Part shown: piece by piece, positions 4,556-28,577 of the stretch | Numbering within the stretch: position 1 is the first letter of the stretch | Layout of the letters: the number at the start of each line of letters is the position of its first letter | Source: a virus | Lineage: Duplodnaviria > Caudoviricetes | IMG/VR virus record: IMGVR_UViG_3300037308_000199 | Coordinates: 1-38,140 of that record | Length of the DNA: 38,140 bases | Direction: 5' to 3' (one strand) | The notes under the pieces: generated by a model | Told to the model about the DNA's origin: nothing | Seen by the model: the letters and a program-made list of their open reading frames with translations, nothing else | Database searches by the model: none | Position numbers and translations under genes: made by a program

Positions 4556-6019
4556 ATGCAGGAAGTCGGGCTGGGCCAGGTATTCCAGGCCATCGAGCAG
4601 GCGTTTAAGGACAAGGAATACCCGAGGGTCGAGGCGCTGCTGTGGCCGGCGATTGACCAGTTCAACGACCACCCCGCCCTGTGGTTCTACGCCGCCAATC
4701 TGTTCTTCGCCCGTGAGCTGTCTGCCCTGGCGGCGGCCTGCTACGAGCGCAGCCTGGAGCTTGAGCCCAACTCCGTGGCGCTGGCCAACCTGGGAGCCTG
4801 CTACCGCAGGATGAACCAGCACGAGCGGGCCATCGAGGTCCTGCAGAGGGCCACCGAGTACGACCAGGACAACCCCGGCACCTGGACCAACCTGGGGGCC
4901 TGCTACGTCAACGAGGGCGACCCGCGGCCTGGCATCGTCGCCTGTGAGCGCGCCCTGCAGATCAAGCCAGGCTTCCCCAGGGCCGAGTGGAACCTGGGCC
5001 TGCTGCACCTGGAGGCCGGCGACTTCGACAACGGTTTTCGCCTGTACCGTTCCGGCCTGGGCAAGGAGCGCCTGCTGCGCTACTACCACGGCCCGGACAT
5101 CGACACCCCTGGCGAGAACGAGCCGGAGCTGCTGGACCGCAGGCACCTGGGCAAGCTGACGGGCCGCAAGGTGGTGGTATGGGGCGAGCAGGGCCTGGGC
5201 GACGAGCTGATGTTCGCCAACTGCCTGCATGAGCTGCTGGCCGAGGGCTGCCAGGTGGTGTTCGAGCACCATCCGCGGATGACCGCGATCTACCAGGCCG
5301 CCTTCGGCAAGTACACCAGCCTGACGCTGATCCCGACCCGCAAGGCGAACACCGCGGCCGAGGCCATGAAGCATGGCCCGTTCGACTACCGCTGCGGCGT
5401 GGGCGACCTGGCCTGCCTGTTCCGGCGCTCGGCCGATGACTACGCCGAGGCCTGGCGGGATTACGGCCCGTTCTGGCCGTGCGCCGACCAGGGCATTCGG
5501 GCCGAGTACCGCGCGCGCCTGGAGGAGCTGGCAGCCGGGCGCAAGATCATCGGCCTGGCGACGCGCGGCGGGGTCATCAAGACCATGCGCAGCTACAGGA
5601 CCATTGGCATCGGTGACCTGGCCCCGCTGCTGAAGCTCTCGGACAGGTTCCTGTTCGTATGCTTCGACTACGAGGACGTGGGCGAGGCGGTGCTGGCGGT
5701 CAACCAGAAGCACGGCGAAAGCGCAATGTGCTGGCCGCGCGCCGCCGTCCAGCATTTCGACTACGACCACACGCACGCCCTGGTGCTGGCGACCGATCGG
5801 CTGGTGACCGTCTGCCAGTCCATCGCGCACCTGGCCGCCGGCTCGGGCCACCCGACCGACGTGCTGGTGCCGTCGAAGCCCGCCTGGCGCTACGGCCTGC
5901 AGGGCAGCGAGTGGTTCCTGTACCCGGGCCCGCACGCGCGGCTGCACAGGCAGAAGGGCGACAGCTGGGAGGAGGCGGTGCACTCGACCGTGGAGGCGCT
6001 ATGCGCAGGTGGGAAATAG
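4556..6019 (+). CDS. TPR-repeat glycosyltransferase (GT-B, GT9-like C-terminus)
   Basis: 487 aa; N-terminal TPRs (ALANLGACY, TWTNLGACY, AEWNLGLLHL) then 'WGEQGLGDELMFA' and 'D-x-LVTV..SIAHLAAG-x-G-x-PT...AWRY' motifs. Confidence 0.85.
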   Translation: MQEVGLGQVFQAIEQAFKDKEYPRVEALLWPAIDQFNDHPALWFYAANLFFARELSALAAACYERSLELEPNSVALANLGACYRRMNQHERAIEVLQRATEYDQDNPGTWTNLGACYVNEGDPRPGIVACERALQIKPGFPRAEWNLGLLHLEAGDFDNGFRLYRSGLGKERLLRYYHGPDIDTPGENEPELLDRRHLGKLTGRKVVVWGEQGLGDELMFANCLHELLAEGCQVVFEHHPRMTAIYQAAFGKYTSLTLIPTRKANTAAEAMKHGPFDYRCGVGDLACLFRRSADDYAEAWRDYGPFWPCADQGIRAEYRARLEELAAGRKIIGLATRGGVIKTMRSYRTIGIGDLAPLLKLSDRFLFVCFDYEDVGEAVLAVNQKHGESAMCWPRAAVQHFDYDHTHALVLATDRLVTVCQSIAHLAAGSGHPTDVLVPSKPAWRYGLQGSEWFLYPGPHARLHRQKGDSWEEAVHSTVEALCAGGK

Positions 6020-6531
6020 TCGCCGGGCTGCTGGAATCCGAGGGGGCCCGCAGCTTTGCGGAAATCGGCACGAAGGAGGGGCGATTGACCGCCTACGTGC
6101 TGGAGCACTGCCCGAAGGTTGAAGTGGTATGGGCCTGCGACCCGTGGATGAAGCAGGACCTGGCGGCCACGCCTGACGCCGAGACCTACGAGGATTGGGA
6201 CTTCGCCGCCATCCGCGCCGAGTTCGAGGAGCGGACCAGGCCGTGGGCTTCGCGGCTCAAGTTCTTTCAGGAGACCGGCCAGGAGCTGGCTGCCCGCATC
6301 GAGAGGGAAAGCCTAGACTGCGTTTTCATCGACGCCAGGCACGACTACGACAGCGTGCATCAGGACATCGCCACCTGGTATCCGCTGGTCAGGCCGGGCG
6401 GATGGATCACCGGGCACGACTTCAACCACCGCTGGCCTGGCGTGCAACGCGCCGTCGCGCGGCACTTCAGCCTGATGGACGTTGGCGTGATGGAGGACTC
6501 GGTTTGGATGTATCGAAAGCCAACCCCGTAA
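6001..6531 (+). CDS. Class I SAM-dependent methyltransferase (Methyltransf_24-like)
   Basis: 176 aa from ATG 6001 (GGAGG upstream); 'AEIGT..G', 'DPW', 'LDCVFIDARHDY..V..DI..W...VRPGG.I.GHDF'. Confidence 0.9.
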   Translation: MRRWEIVAGLLESEGARSFAEIGTKEGRLTAYVLEHCPKVEVVWACDPWMKQDLAATPDAETYEDWDFAAIRAEFEERTRPWASRLKFFQETGQELAARIERESLDCVFIDARHDYDSVHQDIATWYPLVRPGGWITGHDFNHRWPGVQRAVARHFSLMDVGVMEDSVWMYRKPTP

Positions 6532-20166: not shown

Positions 20167-21044
20167 GCGGCGGCAAGGGCGGCGCGATGCCGTCCGGCGC
20201 GTACCAGCAGCAGGCCGGCGGCGGCGGCGTCGGCCCGGTGCTGCAGCAGGGCGCGACCGGCGTTCGCGGCCTGGGCGCGCTCAACCCCTACTACGCCCAG
20301 ATGAACCCCGACGAGCAGAAGGCCGCGCGCACGCGCGCCATGCTCGGGGCGCTGCAGGGGCTAGGCTCCGGCAAGGGCATGCAGTACGGCCTGGGCCAGC
20401 TCGACGCGGTGGTTAACGAGTCCTACCAGCGGGCCGAGCGCAGCAACACCCGGGCAATGACCGAGCGCGAGCAGACCCGGCGCGAGGCCGAGGACAAGGC
20501 CCAGGCGGAACGCTGGGAGCGCTCCGAAAAGGCCGTGGCCGAGCGCGAGGAGCGCATGGCCAAGCAGTTCCAGGAATCGCTGAAGCAGCAGCGCGAGACG
20601 GCCAAGGCCAACCAGGAGGCGGTGGAGAGGCGACTGCGGATCGAGGAAGATCAGGCGCGCGCGGCCGAGGACGCGCGGAAGCGGCAGCTGACCAAGGACC
20701 AGCGCCTGGCGGAGCTGACCCGCAAGATGGCCACGGGCGGCCTGAACCAGAACGAGCAGATCGAGTACCATTCCCTCGGCGGCTCGCCCTATGCGATTGA
20801 TTTTGCGCGCCGGGGCGCTGGCACTGGTTCCACATGGAACATGACCCAGGGTGGCGGCGAGCCCAGCCTTGATGACAAGATCAGGGCGGCCGGCTCGCGG
20901 CCCACCGCGCCCGCGCCGACCCCGCCCGGCCTCGGCGGTGCGCCGCAGGCCACAGGCGGGCTCGCCCAGGGCTTCGTCGCGCCGCAGCAGCGACCAGGAG
21001 TAGATATGCCGTTCTGGATGCGCCAGCCCGGCATCATGTACTGA
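20163..21044 (+). CDS. Ejection (internal virion) protein, coiled-coil
   Basis: 293 aa from GTG (GTGA overlap); begins MSGGKGG; Gly-rich helix followed by long R/E/Q coiled coil. Confidence 0.72.
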   Translation: MSGGKGGAMPSGAYQQQAGGGGVGPVLQQGATGVRGLGALNPYYAQMNPDEQKAARTRAMLGALQGLGSGKGMQYGLGQLDAVVNESYQRAERSNTRAMTEREQTRREAEDKAQAERWERSEKAVAEREERMAKQFQESLKQQRETAKANQEAVERRLRIEEDQARAAEDARKRQLTKDQRLAELTRKMATGGLNQNEQIEYHSLGGSPYAIDFARRGAGTGSTWNMTQGGGEPSLDDKIRAAGSRPTAPAPTPPGLGGAPQATGGLAQGFVAPQQRPGVDMPFWMRQPGIMY

Positions 21045-21053
21045 GCCGCCGCC

Positions 21054-24000
21054 GTGGCCGCCCCCAGCTTCGACGAGTACTGGCAGAGGGTCCAGGCGCA
21101 GGTGCCTGGGGCGACCCTGGAGGACGCGCGCCGCGTCTACCGGCAGGACTACGGCACCGAGCCGGTACTGACCGCCGGGCCCAGCTACTCCGAGTTCAAG
21201 AGCCGGGTGCAGGCGCAGGTGCCGGATGCGCCCGAGGCGGACATCGAGCGCGTCTACCGGCGGGACTACGGTGCGCCACTGACCACCGACATCGCCCGCG
21301 GCCTGGGGCGCGGCGGCGCGTCCACCCGCCTGGCCGCGGCGGGCGGGACCCTGATTGCATCCGACTACCTGACCCGCGCGGCCGGCGGCCTGGCCCGCCT
21401 GTTGCCTGGCCGGCTGGCCGACAGCCTCCAGGGAATCGGAATGCTTGGCTCGGCCCTCGGTGGCGGCCTGTATGAAGCCGGCCGAGAGGGCTACGAGAAG
21501 AACGCGGCGGCCGCCGACCTGAAGCAAACCTGGCTTGAGAACCCGGCGCAGCTGACCCGGCCGGATTACTGGCTGTCCTCGGCCGCTGAGGGGGCCGCCA
21601 CTACGATCCCGACCCTGGCCACGGGCGCGTTCAGTCCTGCCGTGGGAACCACGGTGGGCACGCTGATGGAAGCCCTGCCGAGTTACGCCGAGCGGCGGCT
21701 CGGGCTGGGCCAGGGTGTCATGGAAGCGTCCGGCCGTACCGCGGCCGAAGCGGCGGCCATCGCGGCGCTGAATCGGCTGGGCATCGAGGCAGTGTTCGGG
21801 AAAATCCCCGGCGTGACCGGCCGCCCCGGACGGGCGCTGGCTGCCTTTGCCGGCCAGGGCCTGACCGAGTGGCTGGAGGAAGGCGTGCAGGGCGCGGCCG
21901 GCGCAAAGAGCCTGGCCGGCATCCTGGGCGATTTCATGCGAGCCATGCGCGAGTCCGCGGCCGTGGTTCCTGGTGCGGCACTGACCGGCAGTGTGTTCGG
22001 GGCGTTCCAGGGGCAGCCCGGGGGCGGACCCTCCAGGGACGAGCAGGAGGCCCGCAGGGCGCTCCAGGGGCTCCGCCCTGCCGCGGCCCAGCCAGAGGCC
22101 GTGCCGGCCGCTGCGCCGCCCCAGGCGGGCCCACAGTACGACTACGACCTGCCCCCGCCGCGCCAGGCCCCGCCGAAGGACCTGGGCCCGCCGGTGGCGG
22201 ACAGCCTGCAGGGCGCGCCGTTCCCCGACCGGGCGATGGAAGTGGTCACCGCCCGCGGGACGCGCGTGCCGGTGGTGCCCACGCTGGTCGAGCTGGACTC
22301 CCTGCGGACCAGCTCGGACGAGGGCTACGACCCGACCCTGCAGCCGCGCGATCGCAGCGACCGGGCGGCGATGCAGCAGCAGGAGCTGGAGATTGCCGCC
22401 AACCTGGACCCCATGCGGCTGCGCCCCTCGGTGGACGCCGACCGCGGAGCCCCGATCGTGCGGGCGGACGGCCAGGTGCTGTCCGGCAACGGCCGCACCA
22501 ACGCGCTGCGCCTGGCGGTCGAGCGGTTCCCGGAGAAGTACCAGGCCTACGTGCAGGACCTGGCGGCCCAGGGCTTCCAGGTGGAGGGCATGCGCCAGCC
22601 GGTGCTGGTGATGAAGGCCGCCCCGCTGCAGGCCGATTGGGCGGCGTTCACCCGCGAGGCGAACGAGTCCGCCACCGCCCGCATGAGCCCGACCGAGGCG
22701 GCCCGCGCCGACGCTGCGCGGCTGACCGATGCCGAGCTGGGGCTGTTCCGCGGCGGCGAGTTCGGGGATGCCCAGAACCGTGACTTCGTGCGCGCCTTCC
22801 TGCGCACCGTTCCGCCCGGCGAGGTCAACGCGCTGATTGACCGGGAAGGGACCCTTTCGCCGGAGGGCGTCCGCCGGATACAGGGCGCGCTGCTGGCGAA
22901 GGCCTACGGCGACAACCAGGTGCTGGCCCGGGCGCTGGAGACGAACGACAACAACATGCGTGCCGCCTCGGGCGCGATGCTCGACGCCGCGCCCGCGTTC
23001 GCCTCGCTGCGCGCCGACGTGCAGGCCGGTAAGCTGCGGCCCGAGTTCGACATCGGGGCCAGGGTCGTCCAGGCCGTGGAGCTGGTGTCCCAGCTGCGCG
23101 CGAAGCGCCAGGGCCTGCGCGAGTTCCTGGACCAGAAGGGGCTGTTCGGGGACCTGCCGCCGGAGACCGAGGCGATCCTGCGCGGCATGCACAACACCGC
23201 CCTGACCCGGCCGGTGGGCCGCGAGCGGATGGCGGACTTCCTGCGCTTCTACGCCAAGCAGGCCGCGGCGGCCGGCCAGGCAAAGCAGCAGGACCTGCTG
23301 GGCGGCGAGGCGGCCCCGGCCACCCCGGCCGACCTGCTGCGCCAGGCCGCGGCGCTGTTCACCGCCGGCGAGGAGCCCAGCCAGGCGGCCATGTTCGCCT
23401 TCCAGGGCCAGCCCGAGCGCCGCGCGCGGCCGATGCCGGCCAGCCTGGTAGGTCGGCTGGTGAACCAGGCCGCCTCGCGCTGGACCAACGGCCCGCGCAT
23501 GGTGGTGGCGGAGCACGCCTCGGACCTGCCGGTGCACGTCCTGATGCAGCTCGGCCCGGACATCACGGCCGCCTACATCCGCGAGCGCACCGGGCCGGTG
23601 GTGTACGTGGTCGCGGACAAGATCAGCGACCGCTTCCAGCTGCAGCGCGCCCTGGCCCACGATGTCGTCGGCCACTACGGCTTCATCAACCTGATGCAGG
23701 ACCGCTGGCAGTGGACCGTCGAGCAGGTCAACCGGCTGTCCACGCGCGACCCGCTGATCCGCAACATCGCCGCCGACGTGGACGAGCTGTACCGCGGCGT
23801 GGACTCGAACACCCGCGCGGCGGAGATTGTCGCGGCGCTGGCCGAGCGCAGCCCGAAGCACCCGCTGGTGCAGCGCGTCCTGGCGCAGTTCAAGGAGGCG
23901 CTGCGCAAGCTGGGGTTCGGCCTGAACCTGAGCCGCAACGACCTGGTGTACCTGCTGAACCGCAGCGCCGAATCGCTGCGCTGGCAGGGCGTACAGCCGG

Positions 24001-27000
24001 TACAGCGCGGCCTGAACACCGCCGAGCCGGTGGGCGGGCTCAACGCTGAAGGCTCGCCCGAGGCCTACGCCATGCGCCAGGCCACCGACGCGCAGCGCCT
24101 GCCGCCTGGGCCCATGAACTTCAGCGTGGGCCGGCCGAGCTGGGAGCACAGCCGCCGCACCAAGCAGGTACAGGTGCAGGTCAACCCGGACCTTTCCGCG
24201 CTGCGCCGCATGGGCAAGGACGCGGTGCTGCGCTACATCGACGACCAGGACGGCAACCGCTTTGTATGGGCGAGCAGCGAGGCCATGCACTTTGCGATGG
24301 CGCGCGCCCTGAAGCTGGCCGGCGTGAACCTGGCCGGCGAGGTCGAGAACCCGTACAGCGTGGGCGGCGGCAGCGGCTACATGACCGTGCGGCCGGACGG
24401 CGAAATCATCGTGGACGCCTACGACGACGAGGCCGAGCGCGCCCGCAACGGCCTGGTGCGCAGCACGATGGCGAAGGCGGCGCAGCCCGAGCTGCCGATG
24501 GGCGAGGGCGCGTACTCGAAGGCGGACCTGGACGCGATGTTCCCGCCGCAGGCGCTGGCGCAGCGCGTGCCGGCGTCCGGCGTCCGCCACTACGAGCACC
24601 AGTCCTGGCTCGACTGGACGCACGCCCAGGTCGCCATCATGTCGCGCACCGCGGCGACCGGCGTGGTCGATACGTCGGTGGACCCGAGCAAGGCCGCGAG
24701 CATCCAGCAGCAGACCGCGGACGCGCGCCAGGAGCAGGTGCGCAACAACATCGGCAGCGCGGCCAGCGTGCTGGGCCGGATCAAGGGCGGCCCGCGCACG
24801 CTCGCGCAGCTGCCGCCCGAGCAGATCGTGGAAGTGTTCGACATGGTGGCCCGGCTGCTGAACCAGGGCATCGTGAAGGACCCGCGCAACATCGTCCGCC
24901 AGCACCGCGACAAGAAGGGCTTTGGCTACATCGAGCCCGAGGCGATCGAGCAGCACCGGCTGGATACCGCCAGGTGGTTCAAGGAGGCGGTGCTGGGCGG
25001 CATGCCACTGTCCGAGGTCGCGGCCCGCCTGCGCTGGCGCGGTGACCACCGCGGCCACTGGTACGCGGACGGCATGGGGCGCTGGGGCGCGCTCATGCAG
25101 ACCTGGATTGCGTGGTACGACCACGCCACCCCGGACTTCACCAGCCGCGATCAGTATTTCGACAAGATTAAGGAGCTGGGCAAGGTGCGCGAGGCGCTGG
25201 GCAACCAGGCCGCCGAGGACGCCTTCGCCAGCTGGTTCCAGGAGCATATGTACCGCGTGCAGCGGTTCGCGCCCGACTGGCTGGGCCAGCGGCACATTTA
25301 CGTGCTGCCCGAGCGCCATCCGTGGTTGAACCCGTCGTGGAAGAAGGGCACGCCGTACTTCCAGCGCGGCGCGCGCGCCAGGCTGCACACGCGGCTGTTC
25401 GATGCGTTCACCAGGGGATGGAAGCCGACCAAGAAAGGCCAGCGGCCCACCTGCTACGTGATGATGGGCGGCCCTGGGGTCGGCAAGAGCGGCTTCCTGC
25501 GCACGCTGCAGCAGACGGGCAAGATACCGCGACACCTGCCGAAGGTTGACATCGACGATGCGCGCGTTAAGACGCCAGAGTTCACCAGGCTGGCGGCGAT
25601 CGGTGACACGCGCGCGGCCATCCTCATGCAGGCGGAGGCCTCGGACACGGGCAAGGCGGCGGTAGCCTTCCTGACCGACCCGAGCCGGCGGGCGAGCTTC
25701 ATCTGGGACGGCACTTTCGGGGACGTGGAGGACGACGCCAAGAAGCTGGCCGCCCTTAAGGACCCGGCGCGCGACTACGAAGTGGTGGCCATGGTGGTAT
25801 CCTCGGACCCGCTGACGGTGGCGAAGGACATCGCATTCAGGTCCAAGCAGTCCGGCCGATTCGTCCCAGACTCGCCCACCAAGCACTTCGCGGCCGATGC
25901 CTGGGGCGGCGCGATCGCTGGCATCAGCGGCCCGTACCTGGAGTACGTGGACCGCGTGATGGTGGTTGACCGCATCGGCGGCGAGTTCACGGTGGTAGCA
26001 GAATGGGCCCGTGACGTCGGCTGGAATTACAGCGACGCGACCCGCGCCAGGACCGTCTTTGCCAGGAGATACCTCGATGCAAGAGCAGCGACCCTTCCCG
26101 AAGCTGTCCGCGGCGCAGCTGATCGAGCTGCAGAAATCTGGGGAGCTGCGGAAGGCGGCGGACCAGGTTTGGGCGGAAATGCAGTGGGAGTGGCTGGAGC
26201 AGTTCGGGGGCCGCCCGCCGCGCCAGCCGGAGGAGTACGACCTGACGAGGGAGCAGCTGGACCTGCAGGAGGAGTAGAGCCGCCCCAGGCGCTGGCTTCC
26301 CGCGAGCCGGCCCTGGTCGAGCCGGCTGGCCGGCGCGAGCTGGAGGTCGGCGGCGGCGTCTACGGCAACATCCCGCTGGGCGAGCTGAACGCAAGCGAGT
26401 TCGACACGCTGGAGCGCACGCTGGAGGCCTACGAGCCGGCGGTGGGGGCGCAGCGCCGCGGCACCGTGCCATGGGACGAGACCGAGCAGCGCGCCCTGGA
26501 GCTGATCCGGTTGCGGCTCGGCATCACGCTCGACGGCCTGGTGAACCGCAAGGCCGGCAGCGCGGCGAACGCGGAGCAGCTGCTGGCCTACGGCAGCCTG
26601 CTGGGCAACGCGGTGCGGGAAGTCGAGCGCCTGGCCGCGGACGTGCGCAACACCGGCAGCGACCAGGCCAAGGTCGCCTTCATGCAGGGCCTGGAGCGCC
26701 TGGCCATGCTGGCCGCGCCCACCTACGGCGCGATGACCGAGGCGGGGCGGGCGCTCAACATCCTGCGCAAGGTCGCGCCGCTGGCGAAGTCAGCGCGCGC
26801 CATCGTCGAGGGCATGGGCGACGGTGCGGACGCCAACCTGCTGACCCTAGCTGGCGCGATCGGCAACGCCGGCAGCCGTGACGAAGTGCTCGGCATCGGC
26901 CGCGCGCTCCACCACCCCGACTGGTGGGACAAGTTCTACGAAGGGTGGATCAACGGCCTGCTGTCCGGGCCGGTGACGCACGCGGTCAACATCGTGTCCA

Positions 27001-28577
27001 ACGCCTTCTACCAGGCGATGGAGACGGCCAGCAACGCGGCCGGTGCCTTCACCGGGGACGGCCTGACGCTGCGCCAGGTCGGCGCGCGGGTGTCCGCGCT
27101 GGGCGACGGCATCAGCATGGGCCTGCGCAACGCGCGCGAGGCCTGGCAGACGCAGGCCCCGGTGCTCGACCCGATGCAGAAGATGGAAGTGGAGCGGCTG
27201 CGCGCGATCGGCGGCCTGGCCGGCGACCTGATCCGCACGCCGGGCCGCGCGCTGCTGGCCGAGGACGAGTTTTTCAAGGGCGTGGCCTACCAGATGGAGC
27301 TGGCGCAGCAGCTCATGGCGATCGCGGAGCGGGAGAGCCCGCAGGACCCGATGAGCCTGTACCGGGCGATGTTCCACAACCTGGAGGCGTTCCCCGAGGC
27401 GATGGCGAAGGCGCGCGAGGCGGCCAACAAGCTGACCTTCACGACCCGCCTGGGCCCGAGCGCCGGGGCGATCAACCACGCGCTGGTGCGCTCGAAGGTC
27501 GGCAAGCTCATCGTGCCGTTCGTGCGCACGCCCACTAACATCGTGAAGTCCTCGCTGGAGTACATGCCGGTGGGGGCGCTCGCGCCCGACACGCTGCGCA
27601 AGCTGGCCGGCAAGGGCGATCCGATGGAAGCCGCGCGGGCCCGCGGCCGGCAGCTCGTCGGCCTGGGCCTGGGCCTGTACGCGGTGCAGATGGCCGCCGC
27701 CGGCCTGCTGTCCGGGGCCGGCCCGGACGATCCGGCCGAGCGCCAGCTGCTGTACCGCACCGGCTGGCAGCCGTACTCGGCCAAGCTGGGCGGCACCTGG
27801 TACAAGTACAACCGCTTCGAGCCGCTGGGCATGCTGCTGGGCATCGCCGCCGACATGCACGAGCTGGCCGGCGCAGCGAAGGAGGAGGAAGTGGGCGTGC
27901 TCGCCAGCATGCTGGTGATGAGCTTCGCCAACAACCTGGGCGATAAGACCTTCCTGCGCGGCATTACCGATTTCATGCAGGCGTACTCCGACCCGGCGCG
28001 CTACGGCAAGAGCTGGGTGGAGGGCCTGGCCGGGACGCTGGTGCCGAGCGGCGCGGCGCAGATCGCCTATGCTGCCGACCCGTTCCAGCGCGAGGCGAAC
28101 ACCGTGCTGGATGCGATCAAGGCACGGGTGCCCGGCATGCGCCAGGACCTGGCGACGCGCGTGGACATCGCGGGCGAGCCGATCGAGACGAGCGCGCCGA
28201 ACCCGCTGCGGCCGAGCCCCGAGAAGCGCGACGTGCTGGCCGAGACGATGCTGCGCCTGGGCGTGTACAAGAGCCGGCCCAGCCACCGCCTGTACGACGT
28301 GGAGCTGTCCGACCAGGAGTACCGCGACTACGCCGAGTACTTGGGCAAGATCAGACAGCAGAACCTGGTGCCGATGGTGCAGAGCCCGCAGTTCCGCCAG
28401 CTGATGGACGGCAACCCGGCCGAGGCGGCCCGGCTGCTGGACAAGGCGTTCGAGGACCTGTCCCGCGAGGCCCGTACCCGCTACCTGTACGAGCACCCGT
28501 CCCTGTACTCTCGCGCCTGGCAGCGCCGCAACGCGCCGCCCTCGACCAGCTCTAGCCGCTACCTGCCCGGGAGCTAA
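21054..28577 (+). CDS. Large polyvalent ejection protein (ddrB-like ParB, metallopeptidase-like, zeta-toxin-like kinase, conserved C-terminal region)
   Basis: 2507 aa; 'LQPRDR...GAPIV..DGQVLSGNGRT' (~22300-22520), 'LAHDVVGHYG' (~23655), 'MGGPGVGKS...DIDD...IWDGT' (~25460-25715), 'PFVRTPTNI' and 'GWQPYS' near the C-terminus. Confidence 0.88.
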   Translation: MAAPSFDEYWQRVQAQVPGATLEDARRVYRQDYGTEPVLTAGPSYSEFKSRVQAQVPDAPEADIERVYRRDYGAPLTTDIARGLGRGGASTRLAAAGGTLIASDYLTRAAGGLARLLPGRLADSLQGIGMLGSALGGGLYEAGREGYEKNAAAADLKQTWLENPAQLTRPDYWLSSAAEGAATTIPTLATGAFSPAVGTTVGTLMEALPSYAERRLGLGQGVMEASGRTAAEAAAIAALNRLGIEAVFGKIPGVTGRPGRALAAFAGQGLTEWLEEGVQGAAGAKSLAGILGDFMRAMRESAAVVPGAALTGSVFGAFQGQPGGGPSRDEQEARRALQGLRPAAAQPEAVPAAAPPQAGPQYDYDLPPPRQAPPKDLGPPVADSLQGAPFPDRAMEVVTARGTRVPVVPTLVELDSLRTSSDEGYDPTLQPRDRSDRAAMQQQELEIAANLDPMRLRPSVDADRGAPIVRADGQVLSGNGRTNALRLAVERFPEKYQAYVQDLAAQGFQVEGMRQPVLVMKAAPLQADWAAFTREANESATARMSPTEAARADAARLTDAELGLFRGGEFGDAQNRDFVRAFLRTVPPGEVNALIDREGTLSPEGVRRIQGALLAKAYGDNQVLARALETNDNNMRAASGAMLDAAPAFASLRADVQAGKLRPEFDIGARVVQAVELVSQLRAKRQGLREFLDQKGLFGDLPPETEAILRGMHNTALTRPVGRERMADFLRFYAKQAAAAGQAKQQDLLGGEAAPATPADLLRQAAALFTAGEEPSQAAMFAFQGQPERRARPMPASLVGRLVNQAASRWTNGPRMVVAEHASDLPVHVLMQLGPDITAAYIRERTGPVVYVVADKISDRFQLQRALAHDVVGHYGFINLMQDRWQWTVEQVNRLSTRDPLIRNIAADVDELYRGVDSNTRAAEIVAALAERSPKHPLVQRVLAQFKEALRKLGFGLNLSRNDLVYLLNRSAESLRWQGVQPVQRGLNTAEPVGGLNAEGSPEAYAMRQATDAQRLPPGPMNFSVGRPSWEHSRRTKQVQVQVNPDLSALRRMGKDAVLRYIDDQDGNRFVWASSEAMHFAMARALKLAGVNLAGEVENPYSVGGGSGYMTVRPDGEIIVDAYDDEAERARNGLVRSTMAKAAQPELPMGEGAYSKADLDAMFPPQALAQRVPASGVRHYEHQSWLDWTHAQVAIMSRTAATGVVDTSVDPSKAASIQQQTADARQEQVRNNIGSAASVLGRIKGGPRTLAQLPPEQIVEVFDMVARLLNQGIVKDPRNIVRQHRDKKGFGYIEPEAIEQHRLDTARWFKEAVLGGMPLSEVAARLRWRGDHRGHWYADGMGRWGALMQTWIAWYDHATPDFTSRDQYFDKIKELGKVREALGNQAAEDAFASWFQEHMYRVQRFAPDWLGQRHIYVLPERHPWLNPSWKKGTPYFQRGARARLHTRLFDAFTRGWKPTKKGQRPTCYVMMGGPGVGKSGFLRTLQQTGKIPRHLPKVDIDDARVKTPEFTRLAAIGDTRAAILMQAEASDTGKAAVAFLTDPSRRASFIWDGTFGDVEDDAKKLAALKDPARDYEVVAMVVSSDPLTVAKDIAFRSKQSGRFVPDSPTKHFAADAWGGAIAGISGPYLEYVDRVMVVDRIGGEFTVVAEWARDVGWNYSDATRARTVFARRYLDARAATLPEAVRGAADRAAEIWGAAEGGGPGLGGNAVGVAGAVRGPPAAPAGGVRPDEGAAGPAGGVEPPQALASREPALVEPAGRRELEVGGGVYGNIPLGELNASEFDTLERTLEAYEPAVGAQRRGTVPWDETEQRALELIRLRLGITLDGLVNRKAGSAANAEQLLAYGSLLGNAVREVERLAADVRNTGSDQAKVAFMQGLERLAMLAAPTYGAMTEAGRALNILRKVAPLAKSARAIVEGMGDGADANLLTLAGAIGNAGSRDEVLGIGRALHHPDWWDKFYEGWINGLLSGPVTHAVNIVSNAFYQAMETASNAAGAFTGDGLTLRQVGARVSALGDGISMGLRNAREAWQTQAPVLDPMQKMEVERLRAIGGLAGDLIRTPGRALLAEDEFFKGVAYQMELAQQLMAIAERESPQDPMSLYRAMFHNLEAFPEAMAKAREAANKLTFTTRLGPSAGAINHALVRSKVGKLIVPFVRTPTNIVKSSLEYMPVGALAPDTLRKLAGKGDPMEAARARGRQLVGLGLGLYAVQMAAAGLLSGAGPDDPAERQLLYRTGWQPYSAKLGGTWYKYNRFEPLGMLLGIAADMHELAGAAKEEEVGVLASMLVMSFANNLGDKTFLRGITDFMQAYSDPARYGKSWVEGLAGTLVPSGAAQIAYAADPFQREANTVLDAIKARVPGMRQDLATRVDIAGEPIETSAPNPLRPSPEKRDVLAETMLRLGVYKSRPSHRLYDVELSDQEYRDYAEYLGKIRQQNLVPMVQSPQFRQLMDGNPAEAARLLDKAFEDLSREARTRYLYEHPSLYSRAWQRRNAPPSTSSSRYLPGS
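26077..26277 (+). CDS. Nested out-of-frame 66-aa acidic protein (candidate antitoxin)
   Basis: ATG 26077 with AGGAG 8 nt upstream; codons mostly G/C-ending in this frame while the host frame becomes low-complexity G/A/P. Confidence 0.7.
   Translation: MQEQRPFPKLSAAQLIELQKSGELRKAADQVWAEMQWEWLEQFGGRPPRQPEEYDLTREQLDLQEE

Follow-up and report, generated by a model that had tools for sequence, protein, structure and literature searches.

A small gene nested out of frame behind the zeta-fold kinase domain of a giant phage virion protein gene, and its candidate role as an antitoxin

The virus record IMGVR_UViG_3300037308_000199 of IMG/VR (Duplodnaviria; Caudoviricetes), of which we analyzed one strand from position 1 to 38,140 (38,140 nucleotides (nt), the whole stretch being called the window below), carries a giant gene for a predicted polyvalent ejection protein of 2507 amino acids (aa), and within that gene, directly behind a zeta-toxin-fold kinase domain, a second gene of 66 codons read in the +1 frame. 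From its start signal and codon usage we hold with high confidence that this inner gene is real. Its likeliest role, to which we give a probability of about 0.55, is that of a dedicated partner of the kinase, with a predicted antitoxin function in virion-producing cells. A preliminary description of the same DNA had proposed that a toxin–antitoxin pair was captured into a virion ejection protein, with the toxin fused in frame and the partner kept as an overprinted gene; our results support this interpretation in part.

The nested gene and the kinase domain before it

The nested gene runs from ATG at 26077 to TAG at 26275–26277 on the plus strand, in the +1 frame relative to the 2507-aa open reading frame (ORF) at 21054–28577, and is preceded, after a spacer of 8 nt, by a Shine-Dalgarno-like AGGAG (26064–26068, plus strand); the preliminary description had placed the AGGAG, spacer, ATG and frame correctly. 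Nowhere else within the 7.5-kb giant gene is AGGAG or GGAGG followed by ATG at a distance of 5–10 nt. With codon usage trained on seven other genes, the inner frame had a codon adaptation index (CAI) of 0.686 and a G+C content at third codon positions (GC3) of 0.91, in line with the G/C-ending codons remarked on earlier; the highest CAI among the 2291 remaining +1 windows of the giant gene was 0.562, and among 3558 +1 windows of the seven other genes it was 0.513. The outer frame over the same stretch dropped to a GC3 of 0.36 and a CAI of 0.21, the minimum CAI elsewhere in the gene being 0.491. The switch to the inner frame sets in near 26070 and ends near 26280, in agreement with the earlier claim that it is limited to the nested stretch, and the 66-codon frame ranked first among 15 nested candidates in the giant gene and was the only one that the codon model preferred over the outer frame. 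The composition of both protein products is as first described: the inner peptide is acidic (14 Asp/Glu versus 8 Lys/Arg), and the outer frame yields a low-complexity linker (aa 1675–1742; 26076–26279, plus strand) in which Gly, Ala and Pro (G/A/P) make up 64% of the residues, compared with 31% across the whole giant protein. The first ~10 residues of the linker are similar to a motif seen repeatedly behind the kinase of relatives, and the first ten codons of the inner gene overlap it; because the motif is also present at loci that have no nested gene, the start of the overlap is probably doubly coded. RNA folding in the start region was no stronger than in shuffled sequences (z −0.7).

It is very improbable that there is no inner gene at all, and that its frame is a by-product of the G/A/P-rich linker or of an assembly error. 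Openness by itself is ordinary here, since 9 of the 56 +1 stop-to-stop stretches of the giant gene reach at least 66 codons; the linker composition raises G+C at the first outer codon position, and the inner ATG overlaps the recurrent outer-frame motif that some relatives have without a nested ORF. However, outer GC3 falls to 0.36 only in this stretch, the unique start motif stands exactly at the switch point, and a protein of family A, a partner family described below, is itself nested in the same manner at locus L389. An assembly frameshift as the cause of the +1 frame was ruled out by letter-for-letter agreement between contigs: one from run X1, which may be the source of the record, is identical to the window across the 2801 nt compared, and short contigs from other runs are identical at 26209–26553 (X2) and 25899–26049 (X4). 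We therefore regard the idea that no gene exists as already largely refuted.

The kinase domain occupies about aa 1425–1674 (25326–26075, plus strand). Pfam Zeta_toxin (PF06414) matched aa 1459–1610 with an E value of 1.3e-15 and 57.8 bits (cut-off 22.3), the top Foldseek matches of the modeled domain were PezT (E 9e-9, template-modeling (TM) score 0.66), AvrRxo1 and zeta, and the alignment profile of the kinase matched zeta with an E value of 3e-22, bearing out the zeta/PezT fold first assigned to it. In the AlphaFold2 (AF2) model of aa 1425–1676, with a predicted local distance difference test (pLDDT) value of 90.4, the final helix stops at aa 1674, a codon short of the inner ATG, which falls in codon 1675 and starts +7 nt from the domain end; the inner gene thus does lie right after the kinase, as first proposed. 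The Walker A motif (aa 1472–1479; 25467–25490, plus strand) and a motif with an invariant Asp aligned to the catalytic Asp of zeta/PezT (25548–25559, plus strand; Asp67/Asp66, PMC6362051) were located by alignment, and the Walker A Lys and this Asp are invariant in 104 aligned domains, that of the window among them; activity of the window kinase is plausible. While the C-terminal portion of this giant protein matches 44 phage records, the kinase domain found no match in that same annotated-phage collection, and on these matches the kinase is evidently a module added to the giant protein.

The slot behind zeta domains and its partner families

The inner peptide has no detectable homologue, and kinase homologues reach a best identity of 39% among the 150 representatives listed; we therefore compared the slot behind the domain instead of the sequence. 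Besides the window, scans for motifs in contigs of viral, metagenomic and genomic origin gave 591 loci (designated by L numbers). Together they held 201 near-complete zeta domains, that of the window among them; these form 145 clusters, of which 137 have downstream DNA, and 54 of the 137 are internal. A slot was counted as occupied if a codon-favored nested ORF started between −60 and +140 nt from the domain end. This was the case at 28 of the 54 internal domains (window included), in the +1 frame every time, so that the open +1 frame that the preliminary description had proposed to look for after the zeta domains of relatives is present at about half of them. Within those genes, 28 of all 53 codon-favored nested ORFs fall in the slot, which makes up 4.6% of the length (binomial p 1e-23; the loci are related, and hence this value overstates the case). 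An earlier anchor rule, under which 16 of 36 internal domains were positive, missed domains and was superseded; the counts for 62 C-terminal domains below still rest on it. Several of the relatives are MuF- or portal-fused zeta proteins. Many giant proteins have a G/A/R/E-rich linker directly after the kinase (for example P0008, P0021, P0040, P0048, P0067 and P0090), a composition that suggests further nested genes. Similar-looking codon-favored +1 ORFs also lie 1.7–2.3 kb upstream of the kinase anchor at L273:2622-2789, L404:1529-1663 and L482:992-1198.

Behind C-terminal kinases there is usually a small gene. Of the 62 C-terminal zeta domains, 30 have a member of one family, A, next to them on their own strand, and a further 13 have it on the other one (21 of these neighbors trained the hidden Markov model); of 51 distinct family A matches, 44 lie within 500 nt of a kinase end, in loci that were chosen for their kinases. 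Family A occurs in four states: as a separate gene, as a convergent gene, fused in frame to the kinase (L305, 0 of 200 shuffles as good) and nested in the +1 frame (L389, E 4e-13). Opposite-strand copies converge on the end of the kinase gene at L395, L289, L419, L452, L410, L291 and L406, and further at L240, L561, L265, L283, L284, L311 and L275; the linkage between family A and the kinase is kept despite inversion. The fusion at L305:3812-4681 appears as a kinase with an acidic in-frame C-terminal tail, and its AF2 model (predicted TM score 0.76, partner pLDDT about 57–68) is uninformative on docking. Fusion-like kinases with an acidic in-frame tail were also seen in P0134, L055, L073, L238, L293 and L304, but these have no family A score. 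Tandem double-zeta proteins of virion type were observed at L249, L242 and L281/L288 and in P0007, P0012, P0055 and P0086, and at L281 a single family A gene follows the final stop of the tandem-zeta gene.

A second family, B, has 13 seed loci in which it is nested; in 12 of them it ends in the conserved tail P-x-x-aromatic-P-x-x-acid-stop while the outer frame there varies. L554 and L484 have it as well, in frame +2 behind the kinase. A third small partner group comprises L359, L400, L271 and L562. Families A and B did not match each other significantly in hhalign (E 0.07). In a kinase tree of 135 leaves, all 18 B-labeled leaves fall inside a 47-leaf clade that has the window as its deepest branch, and all 47 A-labeled leaves fall outside it. 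This shows that the partner families follow the kinase clades by joint inheritance, not co-evolution, since kin share labels. The slot and the families A and B thus show the adjacency and co-inheritance that mark a toxin–immunity pair, and the window peptide shares in them by position only. We consider it probable that the inner gene is tied to the kinase.

To examine constraint on the two frames we used pairs of relatives of the kinase loci, the window not being among them, and split the pairs by slot status; L498/L437 (no nested call, flat pattern) and redundant pairings of L398, L281 and L287 were left out. Three nested pairs lose the excess of differences at outer third positions (p 0.003), and four pairs without a nested gene retain it. 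Between L398 and L401, the outer third positions show differences at 26 of 100 sites in the kinase and at none of 40 sites where the nested gene lies (p 7e-5). When remote nested pairs were compared in both frames, the inner score equaled or exceeded the outer score in 8 of 10, although these pairs are too divergent to weigh. The synonymous-site constraint that the preliminary description had proposed to test therefore exists in relatives, where silent outer sites freeze. These data also bear on whether the inner frame could be a relic, a once-separate gene recently swallowed by read-through and no longer translated. No close relative reveals current selection on it, and a captured gene would retain its codon signal for some time; yet the gene is intact from start motif and ATG through its open frame to the stop, and the nested genes of relatives are under ongoing inner-frame constraint. 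We regard a relic as quite improbable.

The uniform +1 offset has a simple explanation, because a GC-rich gene placed at +1 leaves few stops in the long frame: with the inner gene at +1, 2095 of 3537 windows left the long reading frame free of stops, compared with 687 at +2. Separate partners mostly start in frame +2 at the kinase stop, with a few already in +1, and nesting must therefore involve a frame shift as well as loss of the stop. As judged by codon usage, the inner gene seems to be the older of the two and the outer linker to have been overprinted on it, which reverses the earlier view of the partner as the overprinted gene.

Precedents for the pair and other roles of the peptide

Canonical epsilon and PezA antitoxins lie upstream of their toxins. 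The preliminary description had taken the usual pairing of zeta/PezT kinases with a small adjacent antitoxin as its model, and a small gene is indeed tied to the end of the kinase domain across relatives, but the canonical order is the opposite one; the fitting precedents are for this reason AvrRxo1/Arc1 and the MuF pairs. It is the resemblance in gene order to these toxin–immunity pairs that points to an antitoxin role. A downstream antitoxin is described as the rarer order, and Arc1, located downstream of AvrRxo1, as a tested antitoxin (PMC4938570). Like the window pair, AvrRxo1/Arc1 consists of a zeta-fold kinase and a short gene directly behind it, and AvrRxo1 is likewise delivered into another cell; it differs in being two separate genes, in using type III secretion and in not belonging to a phage, and the double-tyrosine motif of Arc1, which was compared by description only, is absent from the window peptide (PMC4938570). 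For MuF toxins of temperate phages, a small downstream ORF is reported in 89.4% of 191 cases, and the main text of that study does not mention zeta (PMC5576092). The MuF pairs share with ours a virion-associated carrier, a toxin domain and a small downstream ORF read as immunity; their toxin is C-terminal and their immunity gene separate, whereas the toxin domain in the window is internal and its partner lies inside the gene, off-frame (PMC5576092).

Other systems agree in single respects. The kinase fold, Walker A Lys and catalytic Asp of epsilon/zeta, PezA/PezT and EzeT are kept in the window (PMC10532202, PMC6362051), but the epsilon/zeta and PezA/PezT toxins, as described there, stand alone, while the window kinase is a domain of a virion protein with an incomplete GTXR motif, and EzeT has its antitoxin fused at the N-terminus (PMC10532202). 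Orphan zeta genes have been noted (PMC10532202). Iyer et al. (2017, PMC5512222) report zeta-toxin-like kinases in MuF as well as polyvalent proteins, and the giant late-gene multidomain architecture with a ddrB-ParB domain matches ours; the main text of that paper does not use the words 'overlap' or 'linker', and we saw no nested partner in it, although its supplements could bear on this. In Rpn systems a small antitoxin is translated from an internal start within the toxin gene (PMC10327210), but RpnS is in frame and identical to the C-terminus of the toxin, in contrast to the off-frame, sequence-unrelated inner protein of the window. Engineered overlapping alternate-frame insertion (OAFI) is an analogue that is synthetic and has the toxin as its inner gene (10.1101/2024.11.07.622342). 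In the open literature, subscription papers being outside the scope, we found no description of a zeta domain followed by a partner nested out of frame. By analogy, the pair likely works like a toxin–immunity pair of the MuF or AvrRxo1 type, outside any described antitoxin family.

Several observations weigh against a dedicated antitoxin. The 66-aa peptide had no homologue in a word search of 5.8 billion proteins (lengths 36–116) and does not score in the partner families of relatives, with 0.1 bits against the family A profile (64 of 200 shuffles as good) and 0.2 bits against family B (291 of 500), whose P-x-x-aromatic-P tail it does not have. A weak resemblance was seen, post hoc, to a local TnpV-like profile (3.7 bits over 26 of 103 positions, 32 of 1000 shuffles as good). 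No sigma-70-like internal promoter was found for the inner gene. Among the relatives, 26 of the 54 internal zeta domains have no codon-favored nested ORF in the slot, 5 of the 28 positives have weak scores (<4), and the same giant genes carry 25 further codon-favored nested ORFs away from the kinase. The kinase itself is atypical: in the motif aligned to GTXR, which in zeta binds UDP-N-acetylglucosamine (PMC6362051), Gly-Thr is kept and Arg is absent, so that toxicity is not assured; it deviates at 5 of 23 family-conserved columns, including the His-Glu of the HEES motif on which the loci compared were partly selected; and it forms a long branch, with a clade support of 0.84 and its nearest leaf at 2.5 substitutions per site. 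Judging from the altered motif, its substrate may be different from UDP-N-acetylglucosamine. Searches elsewhere returned no usable match to the peptide in Atlas, 17 pattern matches in viral contigs with none confirmed, no Pfam family at E up to 5, none in NCBIfam, a best PHROG match at E 0.15 and no described antitoxin family. The slot-negative domains include tandem-kinase genes with a partner after the final stop and a set with a different downstream domain, and L271, which is slot-negative, nevertheless has a nested peptide homologous to that of L359. A predicted complex of the peptide with the kinase (104-row alignment) scored 0.26 against a mark of 0.32 and is used neither for nor against a partnership.

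It is conceivable, though unlikely, that a real inner gene has nothing to do with the kinase and is a passenger, such as a shortened TnpV-like gene read through at a domain junction. TnpV-like genes are nested as second +1 genes just behind the partner at L273:4725-5042 (Pfam TnpV E 1e-4), L404:3686-3973 (E 4e-8) and L482:3701-3988, with related ORFs in L470 and L423, and among 16 post-kinase peptides that of the window is the top scorer on the local TnpV-like profile. Its position outside families A and B and the presence of nested genes in other linkers fit a passenger as well. On the other hand, the peptide has no match to Pfam TnpV (PF14198), the alignment covers only the 26 positions noted above, and the TnpV-like genes start at least 240 nt further on, whereas the window ORF begins at +7 nt, in the slot. 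The role of the window peptide is thus proposed from its position.

Somewhat less likely still, the peptide could be a partner of the kinase that does not inhibit it, namely a folding chaperone, an activator or a packaging adaptor. The linkage and clade-tracking data fit such a partner equally, in-frame fusions such as L305 suit a subunit as well as a cis-inhibitor, and a kinase that departs from its family at several conserved columns may not be toxic. However, small, clade-specific and fast-diverging genes right behind toxin domains are the pattern described for immunity genes (PMC5576092, PMC4938570), and the cis-antitoxin of EzeT demonstrates that fusion is compatible with inhibition (PMC10532202). 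We accordingly keep the dedicated antitoxin as our preferred reading of the inner gene.

The giant gene and what nesting would mean

The giant gene (21054–28577, plus strand) was assigned by Pfam, PHROG and tblastn. It follows portal, capsid and tail genes in a linear viral record estimated to be 56% complete, in which terminase genes are also present; going by that record, the phage is uncultured. A ddrB-like ParB domain lies at aa 401–520 (22254–22613, plus strand; Pfam PF18763, E 6e-28), and a C-terminal region (26460–28530, plus strand) is similar to the T7-like internal virion protein D. Many of the 44 phage records matched by this region are labeled 'internal virion protein D' (tblastn, best among the matches listed E 1e-40), and aa 2063–2432 match PHROG 6651 (E 2e-38). 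Polyvalent domains, a giant multidomain late gene and an internal-virion-protein region are thus combined as expected of a polyvalent ejection protein, and the virion ejection protein of the preliminary description stands, with a C-terminus resembling T7 gp16 and packaging as a prediction. In viral contigs we found no close relatives of the giant gene or of its kinase. Other features of the region are of separate interest. The sequence HDVVGH (23658–23675), which has no family match, looks like the zincin motif HExxH found in polyvalent metallopeptidases, Asp standing in for Glu. A Trp/aromatic-rich segment of ~135 aa (about 24920–25325), just upstream of the kinase and without a match in Pfam, PHROG or NCBIfam, could be another domain or a cis regulator. 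Beneath the giant gene, an antisense ORF of 1841 codons (20361–25886, minus strand) is probably a shadow of high GC3. The capsid-region genes at 4556–6531 include a TPR-repeat gene and a methyltransferase (Methyltransf_24) gene.

We propose that a cassette of a kinase and its small downstream partner would have joined the ejection-protein gene, and that the long frame would then have extended across the partner with an offset of one base, producing the G/A/P-rich linker. One late mRNA would yield both the giant protein and, by internal initiation, a small inhibitor, and the peptide would hold the kinase inactive during late expression in the producing cell. Ejection proteins of the T7 type undergo refolding as they are ejected. 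After packaging, the giant protein would enter the next host by ejection, with no free inhibitor alongside it, and there the kinase would phosphorylate a nucleotide or nucleotide-sugar.

Such an arrangement would explain how a phage could make a toxic enzyme part of a virion protein and yet spare the cell that produces it, and how polyvalent proteins gain internal toxin domains yet retain the partner gene. It would give a first functional handle on genes nested in giant phage genes, and would add at least three undescribed partner families. We would stop just short of even odds on the broader view that this is a widespread, unannotated class of phage toxin–immunity systems, in which a zeta-fold kinase forms an internal part of an ejection protein while the linker behind it conceals the antitoxin in its +1 frame, with partners flipping between separate, convergent, fused and nested states. 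On that view many low-complexity linkers in polyvalent proteins would be shadows of cognate immunity genes, and giant virion proteins would grow by reading through toxin–immunity cassettes. Because gene callers overlook inner genes, the 'orphan' zeta domains of phages may often have a hidden partner.

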